DNA of 64,000 nt from NCBI RefSeq assembly GCF_029227855.1, contig NZ_CP074356.1. One strand, given 5' to 3'. Position 1 is the first letter of the stretch; each line of letters begins with the position of its first letter. This document shows positions 11,780 through 62,761 of this stretch, piece by piece. Under the pieces are notes generated by a model, which saw nothing but the letters and a program-made list of their open reading frames with translations, did not search any database and was not told the origin of the DNA. The position numbers and the translations under genes were made by a program. This stretch comes from Escherichia coli. Lineage in GTDB: Bacteria; Pseudomonadota; Gammaproteobacteria; Enterobacterales; Enterobacteriaceae.

Positions 11780-11780
11780 T

Positions 11781-34245: not shown

Positions 34246-34278
34246 CCTTGCGGGATTATGCTGCTTTAATCATTCAGG

Positions 34279-34354
34279 ATGGTGGGTCGTGCAGGATTCG
34301 AACCTGCGACCAATTGATTAAAAGTCAACTGCTCTACCAACTGAGCTAACGACC
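34279..34354 (-). tRNA. lysZ: tRNA-Lys (UUU)
   Basis: Identical 76-nt tRNA-Lys sequence on the minus strand. Confidence 0.93.
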
Positions 34355-34500
34355 CATACGGGTGTTACCTGAAAGATTTCTACTCGGAACCAATCTTTAA
34401 AATTGGTGGGTCGTGCAGGATGACTCGCTTCGCTCGCCCTACGGGCCGTTGCTGGCGCAACGTTATCCTTCACGCTTAACATCTGAGTTTGATGTTAAAA

Positions 34501-34576
34501 TTGGTGGGTCGTGCAGGATTCGAACCTGCGACCAATTGATTAAAAGTCAACTGCTCTACCAACTGAGCTAACGACC
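34501..34576 (-). tRNA. lysY: tRNA-Lys (UUU)
   Basis: Identical 76-nt tRNA-Lys sequence on the minus strand. Confidence 0.93.
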
Positions 34577-34579
34577 CGA

Positions 34580-34655
34580 GTGGTGGGTGATGACGGGATC
34601 GAACCGCCGACCCCCTCCTTGTAAGGGAGGTGCTCTCCCAGCTGAGCTAATCACC
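34580..34655 (-). tRNA. valZ: tRNA-Val (anticodon UAC)
   Basis: Reverse complement is GGGTGATTAGCTCAGCTGGGAGAGCACCTCCCTTACAAGGAGGGGGTCGGCGGTTCGATCCCGTCATCACCCACCA. Confidence 0.93.
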
Positions 34656-34706
34656 CGATACTGCGCTGGATACTACAAACTACTTCCACCGAACCCACCG
34701 TAATTA

Positions 34707-34782
34707 GTGGTGGGTCGTGCAGGATTCGAACCTGCGACCAATTGATTAAAAGTCAACTGCTCTACCAACTGAGCTAACGACC
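34707..34782 (-). tRNA. lysW: tRNA-Lys (UUU)
   Basis: Identical 76-nt tRNA-Lys sequence on the minus strand. Confidence 0.93.
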
Positions 34783-34784
34783 CG

Positions 34785-34860
34785 GTGGTGGGTGATGACG
34801 GGATCGAACCGCCGACCCCCTCCTTGTAAGGGAGGTGCTCTCCCAGCTGAGCTAATCACC
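34785..34860 (-). tRNA. valT: tRNA-Val (UAC)
   Basis: Identical 76-nt tRNA-Val sequence on the minus strand. Confidence 0.93.
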
Positions 34861-34995
34861 CGATACTACGCTGGATACTACAACTAACTAGGTTAGTGGT
34901 GGGTCGTGCAGGATGACTCGACTTCGTCTCGCCCTTCGGGCCGTTGCTGACGCAACGTTATCCTTCACGTTTTACTACCGCTTCCACCTTAGCGA

Positions 34996-35071
34996 TTGGT
35001 GGGTCGTGCAGGATTCGAACCTGCGACCAATTGATTAAAAGTCAACTGCTCTACCAACTGAGCTAACGACC
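34996..35071 (-). tRNA. lysT: tRNA-Lys (UUU), first gene of the operon
   Basis: Identical 76-nt tRNA-Lys sequence on the minus strand. Confidence 0.93.
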
Positions 35072-35236
35072 CACTTTTTCGTTGCTTTCGGTTTGTTTGA
35101 TATCCCGTGGCAACGGCGGCATATATTACTGATTTCAGACTTGAGCGCAACAAAAATTTCGATGTAGATCACTCAACTGCTTATGATTCGCACGACACGA
35201 CCAGAAATAATGCGACTTCTGGTCGTGTGTTATGCA

Positions 35237-45018: not shown

Positions 45019-45963
45019 ATGAGTCCTGATAATATCAGTTCTGCTGTCAATCGCTTCTCAGGTTGGCCATCTAATGATCCTCTAAAAACAGATAAAGAAT
45101 CAATGACATCACCCATGACTGTGCAGGTAATAAAGATGATTGCCGCCATCCTTGACCCACATCGGATAGTCGTTGGAATCGATACACTTTATACAACGCA
45201 GCGCGAAACATTTACCTCAGAGAGTCAACAGCTCATTGAATCAGCATTGCAAACACTTCATGTGATGAATTTAAATAACCTGGAAACAAATCTCGATGAG
45301 GAAGGTCACTATCTGGCTTTTGGATATAACGTTGACACTCCTGACAGAATAACCGTTTCTGCTTATAATGAAAAAAAGCCTGGCTGCTATGGCCAATGTC
45401 TTTTAATACAGGATGACGAAACAGACTTATTTAACCTGATAAAAGTTAAAATTTTTGAAGCCAGGCATAATTATGTCGCTCAATTGATGAGCGATCCGGA
45501 ATTTATGTTCAAATTTAGTTATAGCGCTCAACAAAATAGATTAGAACCTCATCTTCTGGTTCCCACTTATTTCCCTCTAAAAACAAACGAACCGGTTACG
45601 CAAGAGGATGTACTGTTACTTTATCGTTTCTTTAAAATGGATGGTGATTTTAATATATTAACATCAGATGAATACATGAGTATCATGACACCTCTAATGA
45701 AGTGTGAGCGTAGCATCCACGACCACAACAGGTATGTGACGGGCAAAGATACCCTTCTTCTGGACTATCCTCCTTCTGGTAACCAGATATATTTCCATAT
45801 TTTTCCTGACGAATCAGCAACACTAGTCCTTTATTTTTCAAACAATGACATTGAATGTTTCGTCTTTGAAAGAGATATTCCGAGCCAGTATCGCTTTTTC
45901 AAAATGTTTACCAATCTGGCACTGGTTATTGATCAGTTAACCGATGCCAATCAAATACTTTAA
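45019..45963 (+). CDS. Hypothetical protein, 314 aa, AT-rich accessory gene; no family recognised
   Basis: A long open frame in DNA that is markedly AT-rich (where chance ORFs of this length are unlikely); polar Ser/Thr/Pro-rich N-terminus (MSPDNISSAVNRFSGWPSNDPLKTDKESMTSP), no signal peptide or transmembrane segment evident. Confidence 0.6.
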   Translation: MSPDNISSAVNRFSGWPSNDPLKTDKESMTSPMTVQVIKMIAAILDPHRIVVGIDTLYTTQRETFTSESQQLIESALQTLHVMNLNNLETNLDEEGHYLAFGYNVDTPDRITVSAYNEKKPGCYGQCLLIQDDETDLFNLIKVKIFEARHNYVAQLMSDPEFMFKFSYSAQQNRLEPHLLVPTYFPLKTNEPVTQEDVLLLYRFFKMDGDFNILTSDEYMSIMTPLMKCERSIHDHNRYVTGKDTLLLDYPPSGNQIYFHIFPDESATLVLYFSNNDIECFVFERDIPSQYRFFKMFTNLALVIDQLTDANQIL

Positions 45964-46466: not shown

Positions 46467-47013
46467 ATCCCTCCTGTCGCGAAAAATGGCCTGCGTTATT
46501 GCCAGACGTAATAAAACTTTTGATTAACGTTTCTCGTACTGGTAGCACCCTCATGTACTTTTCTTTTTTACGAAAAATCAAAAGAGCTAACAAAGGTCAT
46601 AATTCGCATGAATCATTAATTATTTGTTATTTTCAACATTATTTTTACATTAAGCAGAGATGAATTGCAGTGAAATTCGACTTAACTTTTATGAAATGCA
46701 TTTACTCATGGCTAAAGCCACGTCACAAAAATGCAAATTAGAAGTTGATCACAATTATCTCAATACATCAAATCAAGTTAATTTTAAAAATTTAACATTC
46801 ATGACATCAGTTGACATAACACACTGAATTAAAATGAGAATTTGAAAACACACTTTAAACAATCATTTCCCGAAAGACATTTTGAAAATAGATCAATTGC
46901 AACATTACGGTCAGATAAAGACACTCCTGTGATATTAAACCTGTGCCGTTATGAACGGCCATAAATACGACGTGTGTAACTTATTTTACTCTCTGTCTTA
47001 CAAAGGATTACCC

Positions 47014-47463
47014 ATGAAGAAAGCAACACTTGTGATTGGCGTTATTGGCGCGGACTGCCATGCAGTAGGCAATAAAGTTCTGGACCGCGTTTTTAGCAAC
47101 CATGGCTTCAGAGTCATTAATCTGGGCGTAATGGTCAGCCAGGACGAATATATTGATGCTGCCATTGAAACTGGTGCTGACGCGATTGTCGTCTCCTCTA
47201 TCTATGGGCATGGCGATATCGACTGTCTGGACATGCGCGAACGCTGCATCGAGCGTGGACTGGGGGACATCCTGCTCTATGTGGGCGGTAACCTGGTGGT
47301 CGGAAAACATGACTTCGCTGACGTGGAAACCAAATTCAAAGAGATGGGATTTGATCGCGTCTTTGCCCCAAGTCATGACTTAGAAGATGTTTGTCAGCTG
47401 ATGGCCCACGATATCAACCAACGTCATGACGTTGATACTCGTATTCTTGAAGAGGCAATCTGA
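47014..47463 (+). CDS. Glutamate mutase S (sigma) component, B12-binding subunit (methylaspartate mutase small subunit)
   Basis: From the ATG at 47014 (AAGGAT ribosome-binding site): [62 protein letters not shown]...; the DxHxxG cobalamin-binding motif (DCHAVG) and strong similarity to clostridial GlmS/MutS as I remember it. The ORF-track upstream extension is rejected. Confidence 0.88.
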
Positions 47464-48851
47464 TGCAAATCGTCTCTGTCGATATTGGATCGACGTGGAC
47501 CAAAGCAGCCCTCTTCGCCCGGGAGGGGGACGCGTTAACGTTGGTTAACCACGTACTGACCCCAACCACCCCCCATCATCTGGCGAAGGGGTTTTTCTCC
47601 AGTCTGAACCTGGTGTTAAACGTAGATGATGCCCTCCCCCTGTTTAACAGCGGTGAGGTTGCATTGAAGTATTCCTCCTCTGCCAAAGGTGGGCTGGCGG
47701 TTGCCGCAATGGGATTGGTGCCTTCTATCACCCTGGAAACCGCGAAAGTAACCGCTCACTCTGCGGGGGCTAAAATTGCGCAATATTACGCCTACAAGCT
47801 GAACCGCCGTGATATCCAGGCACTGGAAGAAACGCAGCCCGATATTCTCTTGTTCACCGGCGGCACCGACGGCGGAGAAGAAAGCTACGGCCTGAATAAC
47901 GCCCGTGTGCTGGCAGAATCCAAACTCGACTGCGCCATTATTTATGCCGGAAACCGGGATATTCAGGACAAGGTGCAGGAGATCCTAGGGCATAAAGACC
48001 TGACCATCGTCGACAACGTTCTGCCCGATCTTGACCATCCGAACCCTTTAGCTGCACGCCAGGCTATCTGCGACATATTCCTTAAACGCATCGTTAAAGG
48101 GAAAGGGCTGGATGTCGTTGTTGATAAAACAGGCGAAGAACCAATGCCGACACCGTGGACAGTCTTTGAACTGGTTAAGGCAATCAGTAATGTCGATCAC
48201 AGCTGGAAAGAGTTCATGCTGATCGACATGGGCGGCGCAACCACCGATGTCTATTCCGCCTGTGCCAACACGCTCTCGCCCGACACCGTTTTACACGGCG
48301 TACCGGAACCCTTCGTGAAACGGACGGTGGAAGGCGATCTGGGAATGCGCGTCTCGGCAATGGTGGTTGGTGAAAGTGCGAAAGAGTTAGTCAATGTGAA
48401 TTTTGCTCAGCAACCCGCACAGCTGGACGCTTTTTATCATTACCTCCGTCATCTAGTCGCTCATCCCGACTACTTACCCGCGAATTCAGAAGAAAAATAT
48501 TTCGATACCGTCCTGGCCGGACTGTGTGTGGGTTATGCCACCGAAAGACATGCGGGCACCAAAAAAGAGGTCTGCACCTGCGTCGGCAATGTCGATTTAC
48601 AGATGGGACGTGACCTGACAACCGTGCGTAAAGTCGTCGGATCCGGCGGATGGCTCTCGCGTGCCAGTCAGTTCGATATGCATCACTGGTTGAAATACCG
48701 CAAGTTAAACGACGACGGTAAACGCATTCTCTTACCGACCGAATTTGAATATTACCGCGATTCCCGGGGGCTATTACCATTGCTGGCAAACGTCGCCAGA
48801 GTCGATCCGCTGGCCGCCGCGCGCACCAGTATTCAATGCTTAACCCTATAA
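47463..48851 (+). CDS. Glutamate mutase L component (MutL/GlmL-like accessory/reactivating protein)
   Basis: 462 aa [39 protein letters not shown]... (actin-like ATPase N-terminus); start overlaps the stop of the preceding gene (TGATG); position between the S and E subunits as in clostridial operons. Confidence 0.8.
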   Translation: MQIVSVDIGSTWTKAALFAREGDALTLVNHVLTPTTPHHLAKGFFSSLNLVLNVDDALPLFNSGEVALKYSSSAKGGLAVAAMGLVPSITLETAKVTAHSAGAKIAQYYAYKLNRRDIQALEETQPDILLFTGGTDGGEESYGLNNARVLAESKLDCAIIYAGNRDIQDKVQEILGHKDLTIVDNVLPDLDHPNPLAARQAICDIFLKRIVKGKGLDVVVDKTGEEPMPTPWTVFELVKAISNVDHSWKEFMLIDMGGATTDVYSACANTLSPDTVLHGVPEPFVKRTVEGDLGMRVSAMVVGESAKELVNVNFAQQPAQLDAFYHYLRHLVAHPDYLPANSEEKYFDTVLAGLCVGYATERHAGTKKEVCTCVGNVDLQMGRDLTTVRKVVGSGGWLSRASQFDMHHWLKYRKLNDDGKRILLPTEFEYYRDSRGLLPLLANVARVDPLAAARTSIQCLTL

Positions 48852-48869
48852 CAATTAAGGCTGCAATCA

Positions 48870-50315
48870 ATGGAACTTCGAAATAAGAAATTAACCCATG
48901 ACGAATTCATGACCGAGCGGCAACAGGTACTGAAAACCTGGGAAACCGGCAAGGATGTTGAAAACTTTGAAGATGGCGTTAAATACCAACAAACCATTCC
49001 TGAGCATAAACGCTTCTCTCTTGCGCTGTTGAAAGCAGACAAGGAAGGTAAAACCCTTAGCCAACCGCGCGCAGGTGTGGCGCTGATGGACGAACACATC
49101 GAACTACTGAAAACACTACAAGAAGAGTGCGATCTGCTGCCGAGCACTATCGATGCATATACCCGTCTGAATCGGTACGAAGAAGCGGCTGTAGGGATTA
49201 AAAAATCCATCGAAGCCGGAACCTCTAAACTGAACGGTTTGCCGGTAGTTAACCATGGCGTCGCAGCTTGCCGTCGCCTCACCGAAACCCTGCAAAAACC
49301 GCTACAGATCCGCCACGGCACGCCAGATGCGCGTCTGCTGGCTGAAATCTCGATGTCCAGCGGCTTTACCAGTTACGAAGGCGGCGGCATTTCCTACAAC
49401 ATTCCGTATGCCAAACGCGTAACGCTGGAAAAATCGATCCGCGACTGGCAGTACTGCGACCGTTTAATGGGGATGTATGAAGAACACGGGATCCGCATCA
49501 ACCGCGAACCGTTTGGCCCACTAACAGGTACGCTGATCCCGCCGTTTATCTCGCACTCTATCGCGATAATCGAAGGCTTGCTGGCGCTGGAACAGGGTGT
49601 GAAATCTATCACCGTTGGTTATGGACAGGTCGGCAGCCTGACGCAGGATGTTGCGGCGATCCAGTCTCTGCGTGAACTTGCACACGAATATTTTCAGAGC
49701 TATGGCTATACCGACTATGAATTAAGTACCGTGTTTCACCAGTGGATGGGCGGCTTTCCGGAAGACGAATCGAAAGCGTTCGCTATTATCTCCTGGGGCG
49801 CAGCCGTCGCGGGGATGTCTGGTGCCACCAAAGTCATCACCAAAAGCCCGCACGAAGCCTGGGGTATCCCGACTGCCGCTGCCAACATTCAGGGGCTGAA
49901 AGCCTCCCGCCAGATGCTCAACATGGTCAACGAGCAGAAATTCCCGCCGTGCCCTGCGGTTGAACTGGAAATTGAACTGATTAAGAGCGAGGTTCGCGCG
50001 GTACTGAATAAAGTGTTCGAACTGGGTAATGGTGATATTGCGCGCGGTACGGTGCTGGCATTTGAAGCGGGCGTACTGGATGTGCCGTTTGCGCCAGCCG
50101 CCTGCAACGCGGGCAAAATTCTTCCGGTCCGTGACAACACCGGCGCGATACGCGTACTGGAAGCCGGAGCCGTTCCATTGCCAAAAGATATTCTCGACCT
50201 CCACCACGATTACGTTGCTGAACGCGCACGCTTTGAAGGACGCCAACCGACATTCCAGATGGTTGTAGATGACATCAATGCTGTATCCCACAGTAAATTA
50301 ATAGGAAGACCATAA
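48870..50315 (+). CDS. Glutamate mutase E (epsilon) catalytic subunit (methylaspartate mutase large subunit)
   Basis: 481 aa ORF MELRNKKLTHDEFMTERQQVLKTWETGKDVENFEDGVKYQQTIPEHKRFSLALLKADKEGKTLSQPRAGVALMDEHIELLKTLQ... matching remembered GlmE/MutE. Confidence 0.88.
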   Translation: MELRNKKLTHDEFMTERQQVLKTWETGKDVENFEDGVKYQQTIPEHKRFSLALLKADKEGKTLSQPRAGVALMDEHIELLKTLQEECDLLPSTIDAYTRLNRYEEAAVGIKKSIEAGTSKLNGLPVVNHGVAACRRLTETLQKPLQIRHGTPDARLLAEISMSSGFTSYEGGGISYNIPYAKRVTLEKSIRDWQYCDRLMGMYEEHGIRINREPFGPLTGTLIPPFISHSIAIIEGLLALEQGVKSITVGYGQVGSLTQDVAAIQSLRELAHEYFQSYGYTDYELSTVFHQWMGGFPEDESKAFAIISWGAAVAGMSGATKVITKSPHEAWGIPTAAANIQGLKASRQMLNMVNEQKFPPCPAVELEIELIKSEVRAVLNKVFELGNGDIARGTVLAFEAGVLDVPFAPAACNAGKILPVRDNTGAIRVLEAGAVPLPKDILDLHHDYVAERARFEGRQPTFQMVVDDINAVSHSKLIGRP

Positions 50316-51556
50316 TGAAAATAAAACAGGCCCTTTTTACCGCTGGCTACTCCTCATTCTATTTCGATGACCAGCAGGCGATAAAAAACGGAGCGGGTCA
50401 CGACGGTTTTTTTTATACCGGGGAGCCAGTAACACAGGGGTTTAACGCCGTACGTCAGGCCGGGGAGTGCGTATCGGTACAGTTGATTCTGGAAAACGGC
50501 GCGGTCGCCGTAGGTGACTGTGCTGCCGTACAGTATTCCGGGGCAGGCGGTCGCGATCCACTGTTCCTCGCGGAGCACTTTATTCCGTTCCTCAACGACC
50601 ATATCAAGCCATTACTGGTAGGCCGCGATGTGGATGTTTTCCTGCCGAATGCCCGTTTCTTCGACAAATTGCGTATTGACGGCAACTTGCTGCATACCGC
50701 CGTGCGCTACGGATTATCACAGGCTCTGCTTGATGCTACCGCGCTGGCAACCGGCCGTCTGAAAACTGAAGTGATCTGTGATGAATGGCAGTTGCCACGC
50801 GTGGCGGAATCCATTCCATTATTTGGTCAGAGCGGGGACGATCGATATATCGCCGTCGATAAGATGATCCTTAAGGGCATCGACGTGCTGCCCCATGCGC
50901 TGATTAATAACGTCGAAGAGAAGCTGGGCTTTAAAGGTGAAAAACTGCGCGAATATGTCCGCTGGTTGTCGGATCGCATTCTGAGCAAGCGCACCAGCGC
51001 ACGCTACCACCCAATCCTGCACATCGATGTATACGGCACTATCGGTCTGATCTTCGATATGGATCCGCTTCGCTGTGCGCAATACATCGCCAGCCTGGAA
51101 AAAGAAGCGCAAGGCCTGCCGCTCTACATTGAAGGGCCGGTCGATGCCGGTAACAAGCCCGATCAAATTCGCCTGCTGACCGCGATTACCAAAGAGCTGA
51201 CGCGCCTCGGTTCCGGCGTGAAACTAGTGGCCGATGAATGGTGTAACACCTACCAGGATATTGTTGATTTCACAGATGCCGCCAGTTGCCACATGGTGCA
51301 AATCAAAACCCCGGATCTGGGCAGTATTCACAACATCGTCGATGCAGTTCTTTATTGCAACAGCCACAGCATGGAAGCGTACCAGGGCGGCACCTGCAAT
51401 GAAACTGATGTCAGTGCCCGCACCTGTGTCCACGTCGCCCTTGCCGCTCGCCCCATGCGTATGCTGGTAAAACCAGGGATGGGCTTTGACGAAGGCCTCG
51501 ATATCGTCTTCAACGAAATGAATCGTACTATCGCGCTGTTGCAGGCTAAGGATTAA
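50315..51556 (+). CDS. 3-methylaspartate ammonia-lyase (methylaspartase; enolase superfamily)
   Basis: 413 aa ORF MKIKQALFTAGYSSFYFDDQQAIKNGAGHDGFFYTGEPVTQGFNAVRQAGECVSVQLILENG... with conserved blocks (CAAVQYSGAGGRDPLFLA, QSGDDRY, LPHALINNVEEKLG, HMVQIKTPDLG, AKPGMG) shared with the clostridial enzyme; start overlaps the preceding stop. Confidence 0.9.
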   Translation: MKIKQALFTAGYSSFYFDDQQAIKNGAGHDGFFYTGEPVTQGFNAVRQAGECVSVQLILENGAVAVGDCAAVQYSGAGGRDPLFLAEHFIPFLNDHIKPLLVGRDVDVFLPNARFFDKLRIDGNLLHTAVRYGLSQALLDATALATGRLKTEVICDEWQLPRVAESIPLFGQSGDDRYIAVDKMILKGIDVLPHALINNVEEKLGFKGEKLREYVRWLSDRILSKRTSARYHPILHIDVYGTIGLIFDMDPLRCAQYIASLEKEAQGLPLYIEGPVDAGNKPDQIRLLTAITKELTRLGSGVKLVADEWCNTYQDIVDFTDAASCHMVQIKTPDLGSIHNIVDAVLYCNSHSMEAYQGGTCNETDVSARTCVHVALAARPMRMLVKPGMGFDEGLDIVFNEMNRTIALLQAKD

Positions 51557-51559
51557 CAA

Positions 51560-52930
51560 ATGGCTCGTTCTTTTAAAGTCTTATCGCCAACGGCAATCCT
51601 CGGGTATGGATTCCCGGAAGAGAGCTTCCGCAAAGCGATGGCAGAATCGCCCGATCTGATCGCCGTTGATGCAGGCTCTTCCGATCCTGGCCCCCACTAC
51701 CTCGGGGCGGGCAAACCGTTTACCGATCGCGCAGGGGTCAAGCGCGATCTGCGCTATATGATCACCGCAGGCGTGCAAAATAATATACCGGTGGTGATCG
51801 GAACGGCCGGCGGTTCTGGTGCCGCTCCACACCTGGAGTGGTGCCGAGAAATAATTCATGAGATTGCCCGGGAAGAGCACCTCTCGTTCTCGATGGCGTT
51901 GATCCCGGCAGACGTTGACAAAGCCATCGTCCACCAGGCGCTGGATAACGGCAAAATCACGGCGCTGGAGTTTGTCCCGCCGTTAACCCACGACGCGATT
52001 GACGAAAGTACGTATATCGTTGCGCAAATGGGCATCGAACCCTTCCAGCGGGCGCTGAAAGAAGGCGCGCAAGTGGTGCCGGGCGGGCGCGCTTACGACC
52101 CGGCCTGCTTTGCTGCGCTTCCGATCATGCAAGGCTTTGATGAAGGTCTGGCGCTTCATTGTGGGAAAATCCTTGAATGCGCGGCAATCGCCGCAACGCC
52201 CGGCTCAGGCTCTGACTGTGCGATGGGCATCATTGATGACAACGGCTTTACGCTGAAGACATTTAATCCGAAGCGTAAATTTACCGAAACGTCAGCAGCT
52301 GCACACACACTGTATGAGAAATCCGATCCCTACTTCCTGCCTGGACCTGGCGGCGTGTTGAACCTGAAAGGCTGCACATTTAAAGCGGTCAATGACAGCG
52401 AAGTGTACGTCAGCGGTTCTAAGCATGAAGAAACGCCGTATTCCCTGAAACTGGAAGGTGCGCGACGGGTGGGCTTCCGCTGTCTGACCATCGCAGGAAC
52501 GCGCGACCCGATCATGATCGCCGGGATCGATAAAATCATCGATGAAGTCAAAACCAGCGTTTCGCGTAACCTGTCGCTCGACGATGACAGCATTCACATC
52601 AATTTCCACCTGTACGGCAAAAACGGGGTGATGGGCGACCATGAACCGATGCAAACTGCCGGGCATGAGCTGGGGATTGTCCTAGATGTAGTTGCGCCGA
52701 CCCAGGAAATTGCCAACAGCGTTTGCTCGCTGGTGCGCTCTACTATGCTGCACTACGGCTATGAAAACCGCATCGCTACCGCAGGCAACCTGGCGTTCCC
52801 GTTCTCCCCTTCTGATATCCAGGGCGGGCCGGTATACGAATTTTCCATATATCACCTGATTGAAGCCAACGACGCTCTGCGTTTTGATTTCCATATTGAA
52901 CAGGTGACGCCAGAAGGAGTTCAGGCATGA
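51560..52930 (+). CDS. Conserved hypothetical protein, 456 aa (possibly DUF1446/AtuA-like; assignment from memory, unverified)
   Basis: ORF MARSFKVLSPTAILGYGFPEESFRKAMAESPDLIAVDAGSSDPGPHYLGAGKPF... begins 4 bp after the methylaspartase stop; no catalytic motif I can name. Confidence 0.6.
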   Translation: MARSFKVLSPTAILGYGFPEESFRKAMAESPDLIAVDAGSSDPGPHYLGAGKPFTDRAGVKRDLRYMITAGVQNNIPVVIGTAGGSGAAPHLEWCREIIHEIAREEHLSFSMALIPADVDKAIVHQALDNGKITALEFVPPLTHDAIDESTYIVAQMGIEPFQRALKEGAQVVPGGRAYDPACFAALPIMQGFDEGLALHCGKILECAAIAATPGSGSDCAMGIIDDNGFTLKTFNPKRKFTETSAAAHTLYEKSDPYFLPGPGGVLNLKGCTFKAVNDSEVYVSGSKHEETPYSLKLEGARRVGFRCLTIAGTRDPIMIAGIDKIIDEVKTSVSRNLSLDDDSIHINFHLYGKNGVMGDHEPMQTAGHELGIVLDVVAPTQEIANSVCSLVRSTMLHYGYENRIATAGNLAFPFSPSDIQGGPVYEFSIYHLIEANDALRFDFHIEQVTPEGVQA

Positions 52931-53244
52931 AACAGTCAATTGTCTCACTGGCGCAAGTCATTCGTTCGAAAAATGCCGGACCTTACGAACTGGTTTTAGA
53001 TATTTTATTTAAAACGAAAGAAAACTATGAGCGAGTTAAATCATCAGGGCAATTAACCCCAGAACTGATTGCGCGCTTATATCATGTTGAACCTGACTTT
53101 ATTCACCGTATTGTCTGGTTTGATCCTTCTAACGCAGTAAAAATCGTCATGCCACGAGATATTATCTCCGGGAATGTAGGTGACAATGATGTCTATGGTG
53201 CACAGCAACATGCACCTTTATTAAATATGAGTTTCGATTTGTAA
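52927..53244 (+). CDS. Conserved hypothetical protein, 105 aa (possibly DUF4387-like partner of the preceding gene; unverified)
   Basis: ORF MKQSIVSLAQVIRSKNAGPYELVLDILFKTKENYERVKSSGQLTPELIARLYH...; start codon overlaps the stop of the upstream gene (ATGA), implying translational coupling. Confidence 0.55.
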   Translation: MKQSIVSLAQVIRSKNAGPYELVLDILFKTKENYERVKSSGQLTPELIARLYHVEPDFIHRIVWFDPSNAVKIVMPRDIISGNVGDNDVYGAQQHAPLLNMSFDL

Positions 53245-53404
53245 AAATCCGAATACTTTTAGCCAACTGACATCCCGTCACTTATTGCAGTTCAACACTT
53301 CAGCTATTTGTAAGGTTGTAATAGCAGGTAGATGCCTGAATCTCTATTCAGGCATCTACTTCTCCTGATTCTGATTTATCGCCGTGCACCTGATGGAGGA
53401 AAAA

Positions 53405-54685
53405 ATGAAGAAAATAAGTTTAACCACGATGATTCTTTTGGCGCTGGTACTTGGAATGATTATCGGCGTAGTGCTCAATAACACTGCTTCACCGGAAACC
53501 GCAAAACTCTATGCGCAAGAAATATCGATATTCACGACGATTTTCTTACGACTGATAAAAATGATTATCGCTCCGTTAGTGGTCTCTACCCTGGTGGTAG
53601 GTATAGCTAAAATGGGCGATGCCAAAGCCCTTGGTCGTATTTTTTCTAAAACACTCTTTTTATTTATTTGCGCCTCATTGCTGTCAATTGCCTTAGGCTT
53701 GATAACAGTAAATTTCTTCATGCCAGGCACAGGAATTAATTTTGTTGCACACGGAGCCGAAACCACCGGAGTGGTCGCGTCAGAACCCTTTACGCTAAAA
53801 GTATTTATTTCGCATGCTTTCCCCACCAGCATTGTCGATGCCATGGCGCACAATGAAATTTTGCAAATCGTGGTGTTCTCAATTTTCCTCGGCTGTAGCC
53901 TGACGGCGATTGGCGAGAAAGGCAGCGCCATCGTTCACGCCTTAGATTCGCTGGCACATGCCATGTTAAAGCTCACTGGCTACGTCATGCTCTTCGCTCC
54001 CCTGACCGTATTCGCTGCTATTTCAGCATTGATTGCTGAACGAGGACTGGCAGTTATGGTGAGCGCCGGGATCTTTATGGGTGAATTTTATTTCACCATG
54101 TTATTACTTTGGGTGCTGCTTATCGGTCTGGCCATCGTTTATGTTGGCCCCTGCATCAGACGCCTGACCCGCGCCCTTTCGGAACCCGCCCTGCTGGCAT
54201 TTACCACATCCAGTTCTGAAGCGGCTTTTCCGGGAACGCTTGAAAAACTGGAGCAATTTGGCGTTTCCCCAAAAATTGCCAGTTTTGTCTTACCCATTGG
54301 CTACTCATTTAATCTCGTTGGATCAATGGCCTACTGCTCCTTCGCCACAGTTTTCATCGCCCAGGCCTGCAATATCCATTTATCCATCGGTGAGCAAATC
54401 ACCATGCTGTTGATCCTGATGTTGACCTCGAAAGGAATGGCTGGCGTACCACGCGCCTCAATGGTGGTTATCGCCGCCACGCTCAACCAGTTCAATATTC
54501 CGGAAGCGGGGCTGATCTTGCTGATGGGCGTTGATCCGTTCCTTGATATGGGGCGTTCAGCGACAAACGTCATGAGCAACGCAATGGGCGCTGCGATGGT
54601 GAGTCGGTGGGAAGGCGAACATTTCGGCGAGGGCTGTCGGGGTAAAGCATTAAAACCCAATGAATCGAACGTTGCTCTGCCCTGA
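53405..54685 (+). CDS. Dicarboxylate/amino acid:cation symporter (DAACS family; GltP/DctA-like)
   Basis: From the ATG at 53405 (GGAGGA ribosome-binding site): MKKISLTTMILLALVLGMIIGVVLN... multi-pass membrane protein with DAACS-type layout; substrate not inferable from sequence alone. Confidence 0.8.
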   Translation: MKKISLTTMILLALVLGMIIGVVLNNTASPETAKLYAQEISIFTTIFLRLIKMIIAPLVVSTLVVGIAKMGDAKALGRIFSKTLFLFICASLLSIALGLITVNFFMPGTGINFVAHGAETTGVVASEPFTLKVFISHAFPTSIVDAMAHNEILQIVVFSIFLGCSLTAIGEKGSAIVHALDSLAHAMLKLTGYVMLFAPLTVFAAISALIAERGLAVMVSAGIFMGEFYFTMLLLWVLLIGLAIVYVGPCIRRLTRALSEPALLAFTTSSSEAAFPGTLEKLEQFGVSPKIASFVLPIGYSFNLVGSMAYCSFATVFIAQACNIHLSIGEQITMLLILMLTSKGMAGVPRASMVVIAATLNQFNIPEAGLILLMGVDPFLDMGRSATNVMSNAMGAAMVSRWEGEHFGEGCRGKALKPNESNVALP

Positions 54686-54792
54686 GGGGGATCTTAAGCA
54701 ATCAGAAGCCAATGACTACGCATTTTTATAAGCCGGATCATGAAGTTAGACGGCAATTAAGTAAAACTAACGTTTAAGGTGAAAAGTGAAAT

Positions 54793-56445
54793 ATGTCCAA
54801 ACCATTTATCTGGCAAGAACCGTTTCTACAAAATAAAGACGGTACAGAATATACATTAATTAGCGATCAACATATTACAGTAACGGAATTAGACGGCGAA
54901 GAAGTAATAAAAATCGCTCCTGAAGCATTAACGCTGCTTGCCCGGCAGGCATTTTATGAAGCCTCTTTTTTCTTACGTTCCGCTCATTTGCAACAGGTCG
55001 CCAGCATTCTTAACGATCCGCAGGCCAGTAGTAATGATAAATACGTTGCGTTGCAGTTATTACGTAATGCTGAAGTCTCAGCAAAAGGGGTATTACCCAA
55101 CTGTCAGGATACCGGCACCGCAACTATTGTTGCCAGTAAAGGGCAACAGATATGGACGGGAGGTAACGACGCTGAAGCCTTAAGCAAAGGCATTTACACC
55201 ACTTTTCAGGAAAATAATCTGCGCTTTTCACAAAATGCGCCACTGGATATGTTTACCGAAGTCAATACGCAAACCAATCTCCCGGCGCAGATTGATATCA
55301 GCGCCGTCGCTGGTGATGAGTACCATTTTCTCTGTATTAATAAAGGGGGCGGCTCTGCCAATAAAGCCGCGCTTTATCAGGAAACCAAATCCCTATTGCA
55401 ACCAGAAAAACTGACCGCATTTTTAATCGAAAAAATGAAATCGCTGGGCACCGCTGCCTGCCCGCCTTACCACATCGCCTTTGTCGTCGGAGGACTTTCA
55501 GCCGATCAAACCTTAAAAGTTGCCAAGCTGGCCTCAACGAAATATTACGACAATTTGCCCACCAGCGGAAACGAGCAAGGACAAGCATTCCGTGATATTG
55601 AGCTGGAAAAAGTATTGCTCGAGGCCAGTCAGCAATTTGGTATTGGTGCGCAATTTGGGGGTAAATATTTCGCTCATGATATTCGCGTCATTCGTCTGCC
55701 GCGTCACGGTGGCTCTTGCCCGATAGCTATGGCGCTCTCCTGTTCTGCGGATCGCAATATCAAAGCAAAAATTAACAAGCACGGTATCTGGCTGGAAAAA
55801 CTCGAACACAATCCGGGGCAATATATTCCAGCCTCACTGCGGGAAGAAAATCACGCGCAACATGTACAGCTGGATCTAAACCGTCCGTTGCGTGACGTGA
55901 TGCAGGATCTCGCCAGATTACCGGTAGGCACCCGCGTGTCGTTAAGTGGTCCCATCGTAGTGGCGCGCGATATCGCCCACGCCAAAATAAAAGCGCGGCT
56001 GGATAGCGGCGAACCGATGCCGGATTACCTGAAGCATCATATTGTCTATTACGCTGGCCCGGCGAAAACACCGGAGAACATGGCCTGCGGTTCACTGGGT
56101 CCAACCACGGGCGGTCGAATGGACGGTTATGTCGATACCTTCCAGGCGGTTGGCGGCAGTCTGGTGATGTTATCGAAAGGTCACCGCAGCCAGCAGGTCA
56201 CCGATGCCTGTCACAAACATGGCGGCTTCAATCTGGGAAGTATTGGCGGTGCAGCTGCGTTACTGGCGCAAGAATATGTCAAAAGTCTGCGTTGCCTGGA
56301 ATACCCGGAGCTGGGTATGGAAGCGGTGTGGATGATGGAAGTGGAAAATCTGCCCGCATTCATCCTGGTAGATGATAAAGGCAATAATTTCTTTAGTCAG
56401 TTTGAGCAGCAACACCGCTGCGCCAGTTGCCCTGCGGGACATTAA
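54793..56445 (+). CDS. fumD: Class I (Fe-S) fumarate hydratase paralogue; probable mesaconase/fumarase
   Basis: 550 aa [65 protein letters not shown]... collinear with remembered FumA/FumB (e.g. [41 protein letters not shown] blocks). The symbol is from my recollection of a described O157:H7 paralogue. Confidence 0.85.
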
Positions 56446-56454
56446 GGAAAATGA

Positions 56455-57057
56455 ATGGAAGCGCGAATTTCAACTGAACGGCATGTGCAGCGCCAGCAGA
56501 AATTGAAGGAACAGGTCGATACGCGCATCGCGGCGGCGATAGAGAAAAAAGGGATTTTGATTGTTTTCACCGGCAATGGCAAAGGGAAATCCACTGCCGC
56601 GTTTGGTACTGTGACGCGCGCGGTGGGTCATGGCAAAACGGTGGGGGTTGCGCAGTACATCAAGGGGCAATGGGACAACGGCGAATACAACCTTCTCCAG
56701 CCGCTGGGGGTTGAGTTTCATATTATGGGAACCGGTTTTACCTGGGAGACACAGAACCGGCAAGCGGATATCGACGCGGCGAAAGAGGTCTGGTCGGAAA
56801 GCAAACGGATGCTGGCTGACAAGCGTTACGACTTAGTGGTGCTTGATGAGCTGACCTATATGCTGGCTTACCATTATCTGGATACCGAAGAAGTGATCGC
56901 TTCTCTGCAAAACCGCCCGGCACAACAAAGTGTCATTGTCACCGGACGCGGTTGCCACAGTCAGATATTAAAAATGGCGGATACGGTCAGCGAAATCCGC
57001 CCCGTCAAACATGCTTTTGATAACGGCATTCAGGCGCAGCCGGGTATCGACTGGTAA
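56455..57057 (+). CDS. Cob(I)alamin adenosyltransferase paralogue (CobA/BtuR family)
   Basis: 200 aa ORF with P-loop GNGKGKSTAAFG and blocks shared with E. coli BtuR (RAVGHGK, TGFTWETQNR, LDELTYM, GRGCH, ADTVSE, RPVKHAF). Confidence 0.85.
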   Translation: MEARISTERHVQRQQKLKEQVDTRIAAAIEKKGILIVFTGNGKGKSTAAFGTVTRAVGHGKTVGVAQYIKGQWDNGEYNLLQPLGVEFHIMGTGFTWETQNRQADIDAAKEVWSESKRMLADKRYDLVVLDELTYMLAYHYLDTEEVIASLQNRPAQQSVIVTGRGCHSQILKMADTVSEIRPVKHAFDNGIQAQPGIDW

Positions 57058-57090
57058 TAACTGCGCCTGGCATCCCGCCAGGCGCAGGTT

Positions 57091-57996
57091 TTACATCTCC
57101 TGCGGTACAACCGATTTCGCCAGCAACCATTCACGAAATTGCTGCAAGTGCGGTGAGTCAGACTTCTCTTCCTGCCACGTCATAATAAAACGATTACCGG
57201 TACGAATAGGCACATCACAGGGGATCACCATATCGCCACTATCCAAATCATGTTGAATAGCGAAACGTGGTAACAGCGCCACGCCGAGATTAGAGCGCAC
57301 GGCGGCAATCAGCATTGAAAGCAAATCGAAACGTGGTCCGTTGTTGACCAGTGGACTGCTAACGCCAGATAAAGCAAACCACTCTTCCCAGCCAGTAATA
57401 CGGGTGCTTTGATGCAGAAGTGGTAACTCAGTAAGCAGTTCTGCCACTGACAGTTTTTGATCGGACATTGCAAGCAAACTGCCGCTGCATACCGGCAAAA
57501 TCTCCTCATCAAAGAGATATTCTACTTCCGCCCAGGGCGCGCAAAAATTTTCGCGCATAATGACAGCATCGTACTCCCGATTAAGAAAATCGCCGTTATT
57601 AGCTAAAGAGTGAATATTAACAATAATATCGGGATGTAACTTTGTGAATTCATGTAAATTTGGGATTAACCAGTGGGTACTAAACGTAGGATTCACGGCA
57701 AGTTCAATAACCTGAACCGTAGGCTGCCAGGTCATAATAGTATTGGTATCGCGTTCCAGCTTATTTAATGTTTCTTTTACTATCCCCAGGTAATACTTCC
57801 CTGCATCATTAAGAAAAATACGTTTTTTAGAGTGTGAAAATAACGGAGTATGTAAAAATTCCTCCAGCGCACTCACTTGTCTGAATACAGCACTTTGGGT
57901 TAACGCTAACTCCTCTGCCGCTCTGGTATAACTTTCATAACGTGCGACGACCTCAAAAGTCACCAGCAGCTCCGTTTTAGGTATTTTTCCTCGCAT
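57091..57996 (-). CDS. LysR-family transcriptional regulator
   Basis: Minus ORF with N-terminal helix-turn-helix (LVTFEVVARYESYTRAAEELALTQSAVFRQVSALEEFL) and a LysR substrate-binding domain; start assigned to the Met of MRGKIPKTELL (the ORF track begins 10 codons upstream); start uncertain. Confidence 0.8.
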   Translation of the reverse strand: MRGKIPKTELLVTFEVVARYESYTRAAEELALTQSAVFRQVSALEEFLHTPLFSHSKKRIFLNDAGKYYLGIVKETLNKLERDTNTIMTWQPTVQVIELAVNPTFSTHWLIPNLHEFTKLHPDIIVNIHSLANNGDFLNREYDAVIMRENFCAPWAEVEYLFDEEILPVCSGSLLAMSDQKLSVAELLTELPLLHQSTRITGWEEWFALSGVSSPLVNNGPRFDLLSMLIAAVRSNLGVALLPRFAIQHDLDSGDMVIPCDVPIRTGNRFIMTWQEEKSDSPHLQQFREWLLAKSVVPQEM

Positions 57997-58209
57997 AATT
58001 CCGTCCGTGAAAAAATAACAATTCAAAAATTATTTTATAAAAAACAGTAGCACTAATGAATATCATAATTCAAATAAACAAACCAGTCAGCTATATGTCT
58101 AACCAGGAAAATAAAGTGACAATAATCCTAAAACAGGAATTTCACCTCAGTTATCCGCATGCAATACTTTAAAGCTATTATTGCAAGAATATTATTCATA
58201 TACATGAAT

Positions 58210-58334
58210 ATACTCTAAATAAGTCAAGTTGCAGGAAGGGAACAAATAATGAATTTCCAGAAGCTTACATAAGTAAGTGACCTGAGTGAGCGAACATCGA
58301 TGCAGCACATGCAACTTGAATTATGACAAGTATA
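58210..58334. repeat. Diverged ERIC (IRU) element
   Basis: tatactctaaataagtcaagttgcaggaagg ... agcttacataagtaagtgacctgagtgagcgaac ... gcagcacatgcaacttgaattatgacaagtata aligns along its length with the ERIC copy at 11653-11779, with substitutions. Confidence 0.8.
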
Positions 58335-58585
58335 CAATGATAAATTTATATACCCTATGTTATATATTATCTATGTCCGGTTAAATTGAATGAGTCATGG
58401 CCTTAAAAGACTTCACAAAAGATAATTCCTCTTTAACAATAAGCCAGATTTACCACTTGTAAAACTTGCTATCGCCACATACACTACGCGCGTTTTCTTT
58501 CCCTTTTGCTGGCTGCTGACCGGAAAGACAAAATTACCCTCGCAATACAGGGGGTTGTTTAACGTCTATATTTCAGGACAGCGTT

Positions 58586-59983
58586 ATGCATCATCTTTCA
58601 AGGCTTGATAAAGCCTTTCTGCGCAAAGGGATCCAACTTTCCCGCGCCAACAATATTGTTTCATTATCTCGTCCATCAGGTGCCAGTGCCCGCGTACTGC
58701 TGCCGGACGAACTGCCGCTGGAAGAAAAAGCAGTAACACAACTGCTTGATTTTGCAGAAGTGAAGCTACCAGACCACCCAGGTTATGTGCGCCAGACGTG
58801 CGCGACGCCAGATTTTCATCCCGGCAATGGCGTCCCCGTTGGCGCGGTGGTGGCCTCAACGCCGGATTTAGTCATTCCCGCCGCCATCGGCACCGATATT
58901 TCTTGTGGCATGCGGCTGCTGACGACCGGATTAACACTTGAGCAAGCCGAAGCGCATAAAGACATCATCGCTCAGCGGTTAACGCAAGTGCTGCTGCAAA
59001 ATGAGCGCGATGTTCCGTTATCCGCACAGGCGTTCACTGCGCTTTTTGATGGCGGACCGGCAGATTGCGTGTCGACCTTGCCATCAGCAGGTCTCTGGAC
59101 ACGCACGAATATCCCCCGAATGGTACAAGAGATTGACTGCTGCATTGGGCTTAACGAGCATAACAGTCATTCGCGTTATGCCCCACCCGCCCTGCTGGCA
59201 ACGGACCGCGCATTACTCCGCGATCCTTGTCTGGGTACGCCGGGTTCAGGTAATCATTTTATTGAACTTCAGGTCGTTGATAGCGTGGTTGATCGCCATG
59301 TAGCCTGGCAACAAGGGCTGAAAACAGGCGATATTGTGGTGATGATCCACAGTGGATCGCGAGATGTTGGCTTTTACGTCGGAAGACGCTGGATGGATCG
59401 CGCCCGTGCTGAATGGCCCACCGGACATAAACATCCACAAAGCGGGTTATATGGTCTGGCAGGCGGACTGGCGGAGGAATATCTACAAGCGATAGGAATG
59501 GCTGCGCGTTACGCGTGGTTAAATCGCGTCACAATTGCCGAAATGGTGCGCGTATGTCTCGCCAATCTCTTTCATCAGGACAATTCGCATCTGGTGGTGG
59601 ATGTGCCGCATAACATCATCCTTCGCGAGCATGAAATGAATATTCATCGCAAAGGTGCAACACCGGCACGAGTGGGCGATCTGGCATTAATCCCCGGTTC
59701 AATGGGCGATTATTCGTGGCTTGCAGTCGGTTGCGGCAACCCGGAGTGGCTGTGGTCATGCAGTCACGGAGCAGGACGCAGCCAGCGTCGACAGGCCATG
59801 CGCTCAAGCGCGACTGAAGAGTCAACGCTGCCGTGGCAATGCGTCACATTGCGTGAAGAACGACGTCTTGAAGAAGCGCCAGCGGCTTATAAAGATATTG
59901 GTCCGGTTATCGAAGCCCAACAAGAAGCCGGATTAATTCAACCAGCGGTCAGATTTCGACCGTGGTTAACGTTTAAGGGGTAA
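58586..59983 (+). CDS. RtcB-family protein (RNA 3'-phosphate ligase paralogue), 465 aa
   Basis: ORF with RtcB-like blocks: TPDFHPGNGVPVG, GTDISCGM, GSGNHFIEL, HSGSRDVG, HNIILREHE, SCSHGAGR. No rtcA, rtcR or prfH-like gene adjacent. Confidence 0.8.
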   Translation: MHHLSRLDKAFLRKGIQLSRANNIVSLSRPSGASARVLLPDELPLEEKAVTQLLDFAEVKLPDHPGYVRQTCATPDFHPGNGVPVGAVVASTPDLVIPAAIGTDISCGMRLLTTGLTLEQAEAHKDIIAQRLTQVLLQNERDVPLSAQAFTALFDGGPADCVSTLPSAGLWTRTNIPRMVQEIDCCIGLNEHNSHSRYAPPALLATDRALLRDPCLGTPGSGNHFIELQVVDSVVDRHVAWQQGLKTGDIVVMIHSGSRDVGFYVGRRWMDRARAEWPTGHKHPQSGLYGLAGGLAEEYLQAIGMAARYAWLNRVTIAEMVRVCLANLFHQDNSHLVVDVPHNIILREHEMNIHRKGATPARVGDLALIPGSMGDYSWLAVGCGNPEWLWSCSHGAGRSQRRQAMRSSATEESTLPWQCVTLREERRLEEAPAAYKDIGPVIEAQQEAGLIQPAVRFRPWLTFKG

Positions 59984-60127
59984 CTGAAATGATAAATGGC
60001 CTGCGGTTCTCACGCAGGTCAAATCTGGTATCTGCGTAAGCTAACAAACTTGTTTATCAACAATCTCAGGCCATCCGAAGATGGCCTGAAATTATTGCCC
60101 CCCTTAGATACACTTTTAGCGCAATAA

Positions 60128-62761
60128 TCAGCCAAGGCGGTAGCTAAATGTCCGTGACTGCCCCGGTAAAAATGCCCCCAGTTCCTTTAAATTATCTCTT
60201 TCCGCTGTGCTGATGCTTTCATCCATCATCGTTTGCGTACATGAAATCACCTCACGACTGAACGCGACAGTTGCCTCACAGGTTGTCGATTCTGCCGGAT
60301 TAAACAGTCGCAATACCACTTCTTGCCGGTCTTCCGCTTTTTTAAGAGCGCTAATCAGGCATCCCACAGGGGGCATTTTCAGCAAGCTATAGCTTTCCGG
60401 CACATTGAATCCGGCTTTATTTAACTTCATCGCATCCCACGGGATTTTGTTGTAACACTGTACTGGCGTCAGCCATGCACGCGCCTGCTGGGCTACACCG
60501 GCGGTCGAAGGCGTACCTGTATAACTAAATAAGCTCAGACGGCAGCTAAAGGAGCCACGTAATTGTGAATCGGGCACCGGCATTTTTATACCCGAAGGAC
60601 GTCCAGGCCTTAAAAGCAGATCTTCTTTCCCCAGTAAGCCCACGCCACGCAGCAACGTAATGGCAAAGGTTTTCTTCTCTTCACCGATGACTTCGAATTC
60701 ACGTAGCCCTTCGCTAAAGACAGCCAGACCGTTACGCCCTTCCTGTAAGGCAGCATAGTTGAGCATATTCCATACCGGAACAGGCGCTTCTTTCCAGCCT
60801 TCTTGTTGCCAGACATCCATCGCACTGTCGCTCACCGGGCGCGTTAGCGAACCAAACTGGGTATCGGCCAGAACATTGTCGGTGTTGAAAGGTGTAGGGA
60901 CCAGGACGCGAAGGCGATGATCGTCAGCCTGGTTATCAAGGTTGATAACCACATCAATGCGCCTGCTGTTATCACTCAGAGTGACAACCAACTCCACCCC
61001 TACTCTACCCGTGCATTGCCGTGCGCTGCGTTCTTGTAGATTACGCGGCACCGCCATGTCATAGCGGATAACAGCCCTGCTCTGCCAGGCCTCATGAATA
61101 ATCTCGCATTGCGGTTTCGCATTCGCCGAAGTAATTACCCACTCTTCTTTTGCAGGTGAATAGTCATATTCATCACCATCATCAGAGCTTTCTTCAATTT
61201 GCAATACCCGGTCATAGCGCACACCGCTGTCTTTATCTACCAGTTGTAGCGTTCCATCCTCATTGAGCGCAATTTGCCAGAAAGCATTTTCCAGTATCCC
61301 TTCAGCGTCACTTTTTGCCGCAATCACGTTGCCAGGCTGATTCGTTTCGATATAAAGCGTGCGATAGCCCATAGAAGGGACAATCTGGTTGATCTGAATA
61401 TCAAACTCCATAAAGGGATCGTAATTACCGTAATGAACGATTTGCCGATCGATTAGGCCAGGATCGATCTCACGGGCATGGCGAATAAAATACGGTACAG
61501 GCTGACCGCGATCGTCCCGCAAATTAAACTGGCTAGCGCGCAGCCGCACAGTGGTGTTGATCACTTCTTCCCGCGGCCAGGGCATCAGGTTAAACAGCAC
61601 AAGTTTGTCGGCATCACTCTGTGGCATGTTATCGGCAATTTTGCGCATGTAGAAACGAATCAGATTATCCGCCATGTCTTCAGCCAGTTCGAAGCGGGCG
61701 ACGATTTCGCGATGAACTTTGTCACTGCAACAACAACCGATACTGTCGTGGGCATGATTTTTTAAGATCTCTTTCCACATTTTCTCCAGCAAGCCGTGGT
61801 GGTATTCAAAACCTAAAGTCCAGGCCAGTGTTGCCAGCGGTTCCAGCAGATTAACAATCTTATTTTCAATACGCGCGTGGGCAATTTTGATATCCATGCG
61901 CGTGGAACCGATGGTGCGATGCACGCGCATATATTTGCCATCGATAAATTCACCTTTCAGAGTCGCCAGATTATCTCGCTGCGCTTCAATCTGCTCGAAT
62001 ACCTCTTCAAAGCGGCTCATCACAAACTTTCGTTGAGGATAAATTTCGCGAAGTTTCTCCATCACTTCGAAGATATTTTGCTGCAATGGCATCTGATCAT
62101 GACCATTCGGCAATAAAATTTCTTTGGTTACTGACGCTTTTTCCAGCACGTCAAAATAACTGTCGAGACGTTTGCGTAATCCGTCTTCGTCGGCAGGTAA
62201 GTACTTACCGATGGCGTAGCCCAGCGGCAGCACCTGCGCCGTCACTTCGCTACCATCACTGCTTTGCCACAAAAACTCGGTTTTATCAGTACCGTGGCGC
62301 TCAGAACATCCGCGCCAGAACATGGTGCGGGTAATGCCAAATCCATTGTAAATATGCGGCAGTTGCTCGGACATGCCAAAGGAATCTGGTAAATAACCTA
62401 TTTTCATCGGCTCGCCAAACGCGAGGCAGTCACGCATTCCGTACATCAGATTACGGACGATGGATTCCGCAGAAACAATCGTGGTATCGGTCTGGGTATA
62501 CCAGGGGCCGATAATCAACTTACCGGCTTCTACCAGTTTCTTCACGCGCTCTTTGTTTTCCGGTTTCACCGCGAAATAATCTTCGAGGATCGCCGTTTGC
62601 CCGTCGAGTACGTAATATTTGTATTCGTTGTCCTGTTCCAGTCGGCGCAGGATCTCTTCCATATTATTGACCAGCAGAATGCGTGACTCTTCGGTGGTGA
62701 AATACCACTCCCGATCCCAGTGCATATGCGGGGTGATGTGAACGCGAGATACCGCTTTCAT
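60128..62761 (-). CDS. mngB: Alpha-mannosidase MngB (mannosylglycerate hydrolase; GH38)
   Basis: 877 aa [47 protein letters not shown]... matching MngB. Confidence 0.95.

Follow-up and report, generated by a model that had tools for sequence, protein, structure and literature searches.

The FumD protein of the enterobacterial methylaspartate cluster has been characterised as a mesaconase (Kronen & Berg, PLoS One 2015, PMC4682846). In Fig. 5 of that paper, the cluster comprises glmS/E, mutL, mal, DUF1446, gltP, fumD, cobA and a gene drawn as a putative LysR-type regulator (LTTR). This LTTR belongs to the same gene family and the same cluster as the LysR gene described here, and the assignment of gene and cluster is thus already part of the literature (PMC4682846). 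Escherichia coli O157:H7 showed no methylaspartate ammonia-lyase activity in the media tried, including anaerobic medium with glutamate, with or without cobalamins, and no condition for expression of the cluster in E. coli has been found so far (PMC4682846). Kronen & Berg (PMC4682846) did not analyse the regulator; the junction with an rtcB-like gene, the start codon, a conserved box upstream of glmS and pan-genome counts are added here. Literature searches found no study of the cluster regulator.

Among LTTRs, the GcvA/DsdC/AmpR branch is the closest described group, and GcvA and DsdC govern amino-acid catabolism in response to small molecules. The cluster LysR protein is like members of this branch in its two-domain architecture and length. 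It differs from GcvA in being encoded in a glutamate mutase cluster and in lying convergent with its presumed target, not divergent from it. Two neighbouring elements also have described relatives. The rtcB-like gene shares membership of the RtcB family with the RtcB2-PrfH module and the RtcR-RtcBA operon of E. coli but has no adjacent prfH, rtcA or rtcR. A repeat between the two genes is like the ERIC / IRU repeats of Enterobacteriaceae in size, palindromic structure and occurrence in several copies per genome, and is about 14–16% diverged from other E. coli copies.

The LysR-type regulator gene

The gene lies in a 64-kb stretch of E. coli DNA, called the window below. The gene order in the window is sucD, further genes, mngR-mngA-mngB (minus strand), the rtcB-like gene (plus strand), LysR (minus strand), cobO back to glmS (plus strand), two hypothetical ORFs and cydA. 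By annotation, LysR is the only minus-strand gene of the island between cydA and mngB, as an earlier reading made from the sequence alone (the sequence-only reading) had noted. The genes concerned are:

47014..57057, plus strand: presumed target operon with glmS-glmL-glmE, mal, an AtuA-like gene, DUF4387, a dicarboxylate/amino-acid symporter gene, fumD and cobO (annotation, Pfam, synteny)
57061..57087, no strand assigned: GC-rich hairpin with a stem of 11 pairs where cobO and LysR converge, in the 33 bp between their stop codons (terminator-like scan)
57091..57996, minus strand: coding sequence of the LysR-type regulator, 301 amino acids, GcvA-like (Pfam, PGAP, NCBIfam, N-termini of orthologues)
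58586..59983, plus strand: orphan RtcB-family gene, 465 amino acids (Pfam RtcB, 319 bits)

The genes glmS-glmL-glmE are annotated as those of glutamate mutase, and all cluster genes in the window are intact by annotation. The hairpin at 57061..57087 probably serves as a bidirectional terminator.

The minus-strand ORF at 57091–58026 was confirmed as an intact open reading frame of the LysR family. RefSeq/PGAP places the start at the ATG at 57996, which is codon 11 of this frame, and in ten taxa all orthologues begin with MRGKIPK at this ATG. Nucleotide conservation drops off 18 nt upstream of it. Judged by these alignments, the ATG at 57996 is the true start. A TTG start at 58026 was considered and rejected; it lies in non-conserved junction DNA that even the remaining island variants of E. 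coli do not share, and no orthologue has the extension. The ten codons of low complexity are thus to be placed outside the LysR protein, so the doubt that had been raised about the first 10 codons was justified.

The 301-residue protein combines an N-terminal winged-helix domain (HTH_1, PF00126, residues 9–67, 63.3 bits against a cutoff of 26.6) with a C-terminal substrate-binding domain (LysR_substrate, PF03466, 98.5 bits against a cutoff of 28), the two domains expected of an LTTR. Its best NCBIfam match is the GcvA subfamily (NF008352) with 219.5 bits, which is under the cutoff of 288, and it scores lower for the DsdC, choline-sulfate regulator and PenR models. Since it stays below the cutoffs for both GcvA (288) and DsdC (316), it is neither of the two. 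The nearest solved structure is that of GcvA (8y6u, E=6e-42). By its profile scores, the protein is GcvA-like, with GcvA itself excluded.

Linkage of the regulator to the methylaspartate cluster

Presence of the genes was counted in 5426 complete E. coli genomes, with at least 80% coverage required for LysR. The LysR gene is carried by 1119 genomes, the rtcB-like gene by 289 and the window-type junction of spacer and rtcB by 144. The interval between sucD and cydA is hypervariable among E. coli strains. O157:H7-type strains have sucD, LysR with the cluster and cydA, and carry neither rtcB nor the mng genes. Some strains show the order sucD, rtcB, LysR and cluster. In strain WW2, sucD is followed by rtcB and the hut operon, and LysR is missing there. 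In one further locus (L008), rtcB and hut genes are followed by LysR with its native upstream region. LysR and rtcB therefore sort separately across E. coli variants, which indicates independent modules.

In the window, LysR and the rtcB-like gene are adjacent and divergent, and a divergent target is the textbook layout of an LTTR, common though not obligatory. It could thus be proposed that the regulator binds the 589-bp spacer between them and controls the rtcB-like gene and itself, and in favour of this the 144 genomes keep the junction at 97–100% identity. However, about 87% of the E. coli genomes that carry LysR do not have the junction. About half of the genomes with rtcB have another sequence upstream of it and no window-type LysR junction, and at least in WW2 there is no LysR beside rtcB. 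Outside Escherichia, rtcB is found near no orthologue of the regulator.

A scan outside E. coli, with one genome per species, returned 37 loci. In 30 of them, a LysR orthologue of 79–93% identity lies convergent with the cluster, just after cobO-fumD-...-glmE; these loci come from Citrobacter, Salmonella enterica arizonae/diarizonae, Klebsiella oxytoca/grimontii, Enterobacter, Lelliottia, Pluralibacter, Buttiauxella and Escherichia whittamii. No RtcB was found in the 10-kb flanks of these 30 loci. The upstream neighbour of the orthologues differs from locus to locus and may be a SUMT-type methylase, a PocR/AraC regulator, DltD, a RIO1 kinase or an L,D-transpeptidase. An exact-protein look-up with GlmL of Salmonella arizonae gave no match.

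The LTTR is convergent with the cluster in E. coli and these 30 loci and divergent only in Yersinia and Yokenella. In Yersinia enterocolitica, the LTTR (63% identity) is divergent from SUMT-GHMP kinase-glmS-glmL-glmE-mal-AtuA-DUF4387-symporter, and fumD-cobO follow after the LTTR, which lies upstream of them. In Yokenella regensburgei, the LTTR (57%) is divergent from a btu-like uptake operon that is followed by glmSLE-mal. A homologue from Leeia (44%) has an unrelated gene neighbourhood and, by this measure, marks the edge of the orthologous group. In all, orthologues from more than 30 enterobacterial species adjoin the cluster, and none of them adjoins rtcB. The link to the methylaspartate cluster, kept through rearranged gene order, is the strongest computational evidence for a functional tie between the two. 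The sequence-only reading had named either the metabolic operon or the rtcB-like gene as the target; synteny in all orthologous loci speaks for the operon, and independent assortment speaks against the rtcB-like gene.

The gene neighbourhoods in the other genera also bring cobalamin into play. In Citrobacter and Yersinia, the gene divergent from the LTTR codes for a SUMT-type tetrapyrrole methylase. Yokenella has a btu-like ABC/TonB uptake operon in this position and Trabulsiella a CobT-like gene, and in E. coli cobO adjoins LysR. The LTTR might thus be chiefly a regulator of cobalamin supply (SUMT, the btu-like transporter and cobO), with the link to glutamate mutase being secondary. However, E. 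coli, Lelliottia, Enterobacter, Pluralibacter and Buttiauxella have no divergent cobalamin gene, and the only element that is invariant across taxa sits directly upstream of glmS. The cobalamin genes of Yersinia and Yokenella run in the same direction as glmS and may form one transcription unit with it, so that the glutamate and cobalamin roles are inseparable there. A primary role in cobalamin supply is considered unlikely.

A PocR/AraC-type regulator is carried beside the cluster in Salmonella, Klebsiella and Citrobacter, and in these genera it could be the real activator of the pathway.

The spacer between LysR and the rtcB-like gene

The spacer at 57997–58585 physically separates the LysR gene from the rtcB-like gene. 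As described before from the sequence, the region upstream of LysR is AT-rich, with 28–33% GC over 589 bp (0.28–0.33, compared with about 0.50 in the flanks). The idea that it forms a control region shared with the rtcB-like gene is not supported. Breakpoints from pairwise and multiple alignments divide it into a mosaic of three parts, of which 18 bp go with LysR and 108 bp with rtcB:

57997..58014, minus strand: LysR-linked segment of 18 bp with the ribosome-binding region; homology with O157-type, E. whittamii and other loci ends at 58014
58015..58477, no strand assigned: junction-specific AT-rich segment of 463 bp, which occurs only where rtcB directly abuts LysR
58209..58334, no strand assigned: diverged ERIC element within the junction-specific segment (inverted arms, ERIC2 primer match, genome-wide copies)
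58478..58585, plus strand: rtcB-linked segment of 108 nt, found with the rtcB-like gene in all of its genomic contexts

The first 18 bp are the sole part of the spacer that is common to other E. coli island variants and E. whittamii. The 463-bp segment is present in at most 144 of the 5426 complete E. coli genomes and, apart from the ERIC element, had no match elsewhere in E. coli, in the plasmid collection or in the fetched loci. No spacer ORF exceeds 40 amino acids, and the small ones are confined to junction-specific or ERIC sequence.

The ERIC element had been proposed from the sequence alone and proved to be real. It is an intergenic imperfect palindrome of about 126 bp with 25-nt terminal inverted arms that are 80% complementary. 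The ERIC2 primer, the sequence of which was confirmed from the literature, matches 58271–58292 with 3 mismatches, and 0 such matches are expected by chance. The element shares about 86% identity with a canonical ERIC copy at ~11.66–11.79 kb of the window. A 146-nt segment containing it matches 5425 of 5426 E. coli genomes, with a median of 7 unannotated places in each and mostly 80–90% identity. Palindrome, dispersed copies and primer match are thus all present, as expected for an ERIC repeat.

The 108-nt segment is about 99% identical in a hut-linked locus (L005) and in L008, and 96% in a third locus (L041), and the sequence upstream of it differs entirely. In the hut-linked context, it is conserved at 99%, compared with only about 96% for rtcB itself. 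A possible promoter, TTGTAA-17-TACACT at 58457–58485, straddles its left edge; it was found by eye and has 8 of 12 consensus matches. The form TTGTA(A/T)-17-TACACT, again judged by eye, is kept in both rtcB contexts, which would make most of the 108 nt the 5' UTR of rtcB. The segment at 58478–58585 is probably the 5' UTR of the rtcB-like gene. The RNA fold of this leader is only marginally stable (z = -2.0). An Rfam scan of 56000–60500 at E<=1 gave no match, so that neither the spacer nor the rtcB leader contains a known riboswitch or sRNA. A promoter/terminator scan of the spacer found 6 promoter-like sites, which is not above chance (3.9 +/- 1.8 expected).

The rtcB-like protein stays under the NCBIfam cutoffs for both TIGR03073 (167.4 against 271.8) and NF007153 (203 against 407). 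Membership of the RtcB2-PrfH module was examined and rejected because TIGR03073 is below cutoff and the downstream neighbour is mngB, with no prfH. Judged by its distribution, the rtcB-like gene is an independent module outside the unit of LysR and cluster. With regard to control of rtcB by the LysR protein, the gene has its own invariant 108-nt leader and a probable promoter at a distance of about 490 bp from the LysR start, the promoter-like sites of the spacer are at chance level, and the conserved box of the cluster has no counterpart in the spacer. Together with the distribution of the junction, this makes the spacer a very unlikely operator for rtcB and LysR.

O157-type E. coli, E. whittamii and L008 share a native LysR upstream region that is conserved over at least 400 bp. 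It is missing here, and in window-type genomes the sequence is replaced from -18 onward. The missing native region and the sharp breakpoints indicate that the AT-rich stretch is a recombination junction that replaced the original promoter. On the alignment evidence, the spacer is best read as a junction formed by recombination within the hypervariable sucD-cydA locus, and hardly as a dedicated divergent control region.

As the native promoter has been replaced in the window lineage, expression of the regulator may be different or poor. The regulator might even be a silent or decaying passenger in this lineage, its promoter swapped for AT-rich and probably H-NS-bound DNA and the cluster cryptic. 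The loss of an upstream region conserved over more than 400 bp elsewhere would fit such a state, as would the failure of Kronen & Berg (PMC4682846) to find a condition in which the O157:H7 cluster is expressed. E. coli also does not have the glsA gene present in other genera. Decay is nevertheless quite unlikely: the reading frame is intact, the protein is 98.7–99.7% identical to the O157-type copies, all cluster genes are intact, and 144 genomes keep the arrangement. In addition, AT-rich DNA readily supplies promoters.

The same replacement put LysR and the rtcB-like RNA-ligase gene back to back across one spacer, so that co-control has now become possible. In the lineage of about 144 genomes, a nucleoid protein or the LTTR itself, for instance, might control both genes together, which we regard as highly improbable. 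If true, this would be a lineage-specific rewiring that couples cryptic glutamate fermentation to RNA repair.

A candidate operator upstream of glmS

The upstream regions of glmS from eight taxa were collected and aligned, and two blocks stand out:

46880..46900, plus strand: invariant 21-nt box TTTTGAAAATAGATCAATTGC, candidate LTTR site (21 of 21 columns invariant in 8 taxa)
46747..46755, plus strand: another conserved block, (G)ATCACAA(A), which precedes the box by about 135 nt (TCACAA invariant across 8 taxa)

The box lies 114–134 nt upstream of the glmS ATG in an alignment that averages 60% identity. Within the 64-kb window it has no second copy at up to 3 mismatches, and each of the 9 fetched loci that hold the glmS upstream region contains its 18-nt core exactly once. 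It contains TGA-N7-TCA, a T-N11-A dyad, and such dyads typify LTTR recognition sites. Yersinia and Yokenella keep TnA-N7-TCAATTG(C/T) upstream of glmS. The first 40 residues of the LTTR, including the recognition helix LTQSAVFRQ, are near-identical in the taxa with the invariant box and differ most in Yokenella, where the box is also most diverged. This hints at a weak covariation of the LTTR N-terminus with the box. No sigma-70-like promoter and no recognisable -35 element were found on the plus strand upstream of glmS, which fits an activator-dependent promoter. The box at 46880–46900 is thus our best candidate operator, and from sequence we infer that the LTTR may bind it.

The box resembles FNR/CRP half-sites and could also be the site of a global regulator. 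However, the spacing of TGA-N7-TCA is one base longer than that of TGA-N6-TCA, and the FNR and CRP readings of the box were rejected for this reason. The second block, at 46747–46755, resembles a CRP half-site. The CRP consensus is TGTGA-N6-TCACA, and it is from this consensus that the block may be read as a CRP site.

Upstream of LysR in the window, O157-type strains, Yersinia and Yokenella, neither the glmS box nor a relaxed TnA-N7-TnA dyad like it gave a convincing match, so that autoregulation via the same operator is unsupported.

Upstream of LysR, another block (...TGGATCAATGAC...) is conserved in Citrobacter, Salmonella, Klebsiella and Lelliottia. It shares GATCAAT with the box at a different spacing and is missing from E. 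coli.

Proposed mechanism

Taken together, the LysR gene is likely to encode a cluster-specific LTTR that has the box upstream of glmS as its operator, with the spacer being a recombination junction. The gene at 57091–57996 would be the pathway-specific regulator of the methylaspartate cluster of enterobacteria, which comprises glutamate mutase, methylaspartate ammonia-lyase and mesaconase. Like others of its family, the protein would most likely bind a T-N11-A site as a tetramer. The most probable operator would be the box TTTTGAAAATAGATCAATTGC at 46880–46900, which lies upstream of glmS at the opposite end of the operon, at a distance of 10 kb. Binding of a co-inducer to the C-terminal domain would then presumably activate transcription, and candidates for this co-inducer are a pathway metabolite or a cobalamin-related signal. 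Glutamate and mesaconate, which the sequence-only reading had put forward as inducers, are guesses. By origin, the spacer would consist of 18 bp belonging to LysR, 463 bp of junction-specific DNA with the ERIC element and 108 bp that form the leader of the rtcB-like gene itself. The convergent layout and the distance of 10 kb from the presumed operator in E. coli are atypical for LTTRs and count against a regulator of the cluster.

Significance

In other respects, the locus is ordinary, with an annotated LTTR of a very large family beside a catabolic operon and near a common repeat. What is added here is a resolved start codon, the demonstration of a mosaic junction and a specific candidate operator. 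As a correction, the long spacer appears to be a recombination scar and should not count as a shared promoter region. About one fifth of the complete E. coli genomes, O157:H7 among them, carry the methylaspartate cluster, as do many opportunistic pathogens. A dedicated regulator together with a precise candidate operator at 46880–46900 would offer a concrete route to the inducing signal.

Gene content around the LysR regulator and the methylaspartate cluster

Directly upstream of the LysR-type regulator gene, Salmonella diarizonae, Klebsiella and Citrobacter have a second regulator, which in Citrobacter comes after a SUMT gene. This second regulator carries an AraC-type HTH, and a PocR sensory domain was found in L011 and L016 only. 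The E. coli island is without an AraC-type second regulator.

Second regulator beside the LysR-type gene in the comparison loci
L016, 8758-9645
L028, 8913-9617
L040, 8839-9618
L011, 7850-8836

In most other genera, glsA (Pfam Glutaminase) is located between the symporter gene and fumD (e.g. L011 13158-14294); in its place, the E. coli interval holds only a 107-bp gap (window 54686-54792).

Between cydA and glmS, two hypothetical ORFs are annotated in the window, for both of which Pfam returned zero matches. No genes are called in the corresponding spacer (~1.2 kb) of Citrobacter, Salmonella and Klebsiella.

Features between cydA and glmS (window positions)
45019-45963, hypothetical ORF, 314 aa
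46044-46466, hypothetical ORF, 140 aa
46747-46755, upstream of glmS, TCACAA-containing block, a CRP half-site look-alike
46880-46900, upstream of glmS, invariant 21-nt T-N11-A box

Both short blocks upstream of glmS are kept in eight enterobacterial taxa, while the surrounding intergenic DNA has diverged.

Other elements of the window

A canonical ERIC element was located at ~11660-11790, within which the ERIC2 primer sequence is matched perfectly (11716-11737). A cluster of seven tRNA genes on the reverse strand (34171-35072; five tRNA-Lys UUU and two tRNA-Val UAC) came to notice because the Lys anticodon stem-loop fits the pattern TTGA-N7-TCAA.

The orphan RtcB-family gene and the sucD-cydA interval

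An orphan RtcB-family gene of 465 aa, together with its upstream segment, occupies window 58478-59983. The protein scores under the cutoffs of the NCBIfam RtcB models, and neither prfH, rtcA nor rtcR was found among the neighbours of the gene. Its 108-nt upstream segment is a constant companion (96-99% identical). The gene adjoins sucD in at least three different contexts, namely with LysR, with a hut operon and with mngB; in ~400 further E. coli genomes it is reduced to 42 nt from the 3' end.

A histidine-utilisation (hut) module can separate rtcB from cydA-side DNA or from the LysR gene (L008 1328-9982; L005 1-4351). This placement shows that the Escherichia sucD-cydA interval is a multi-module hotspot, with mng, rtcB, hut and the glm island as its modules.
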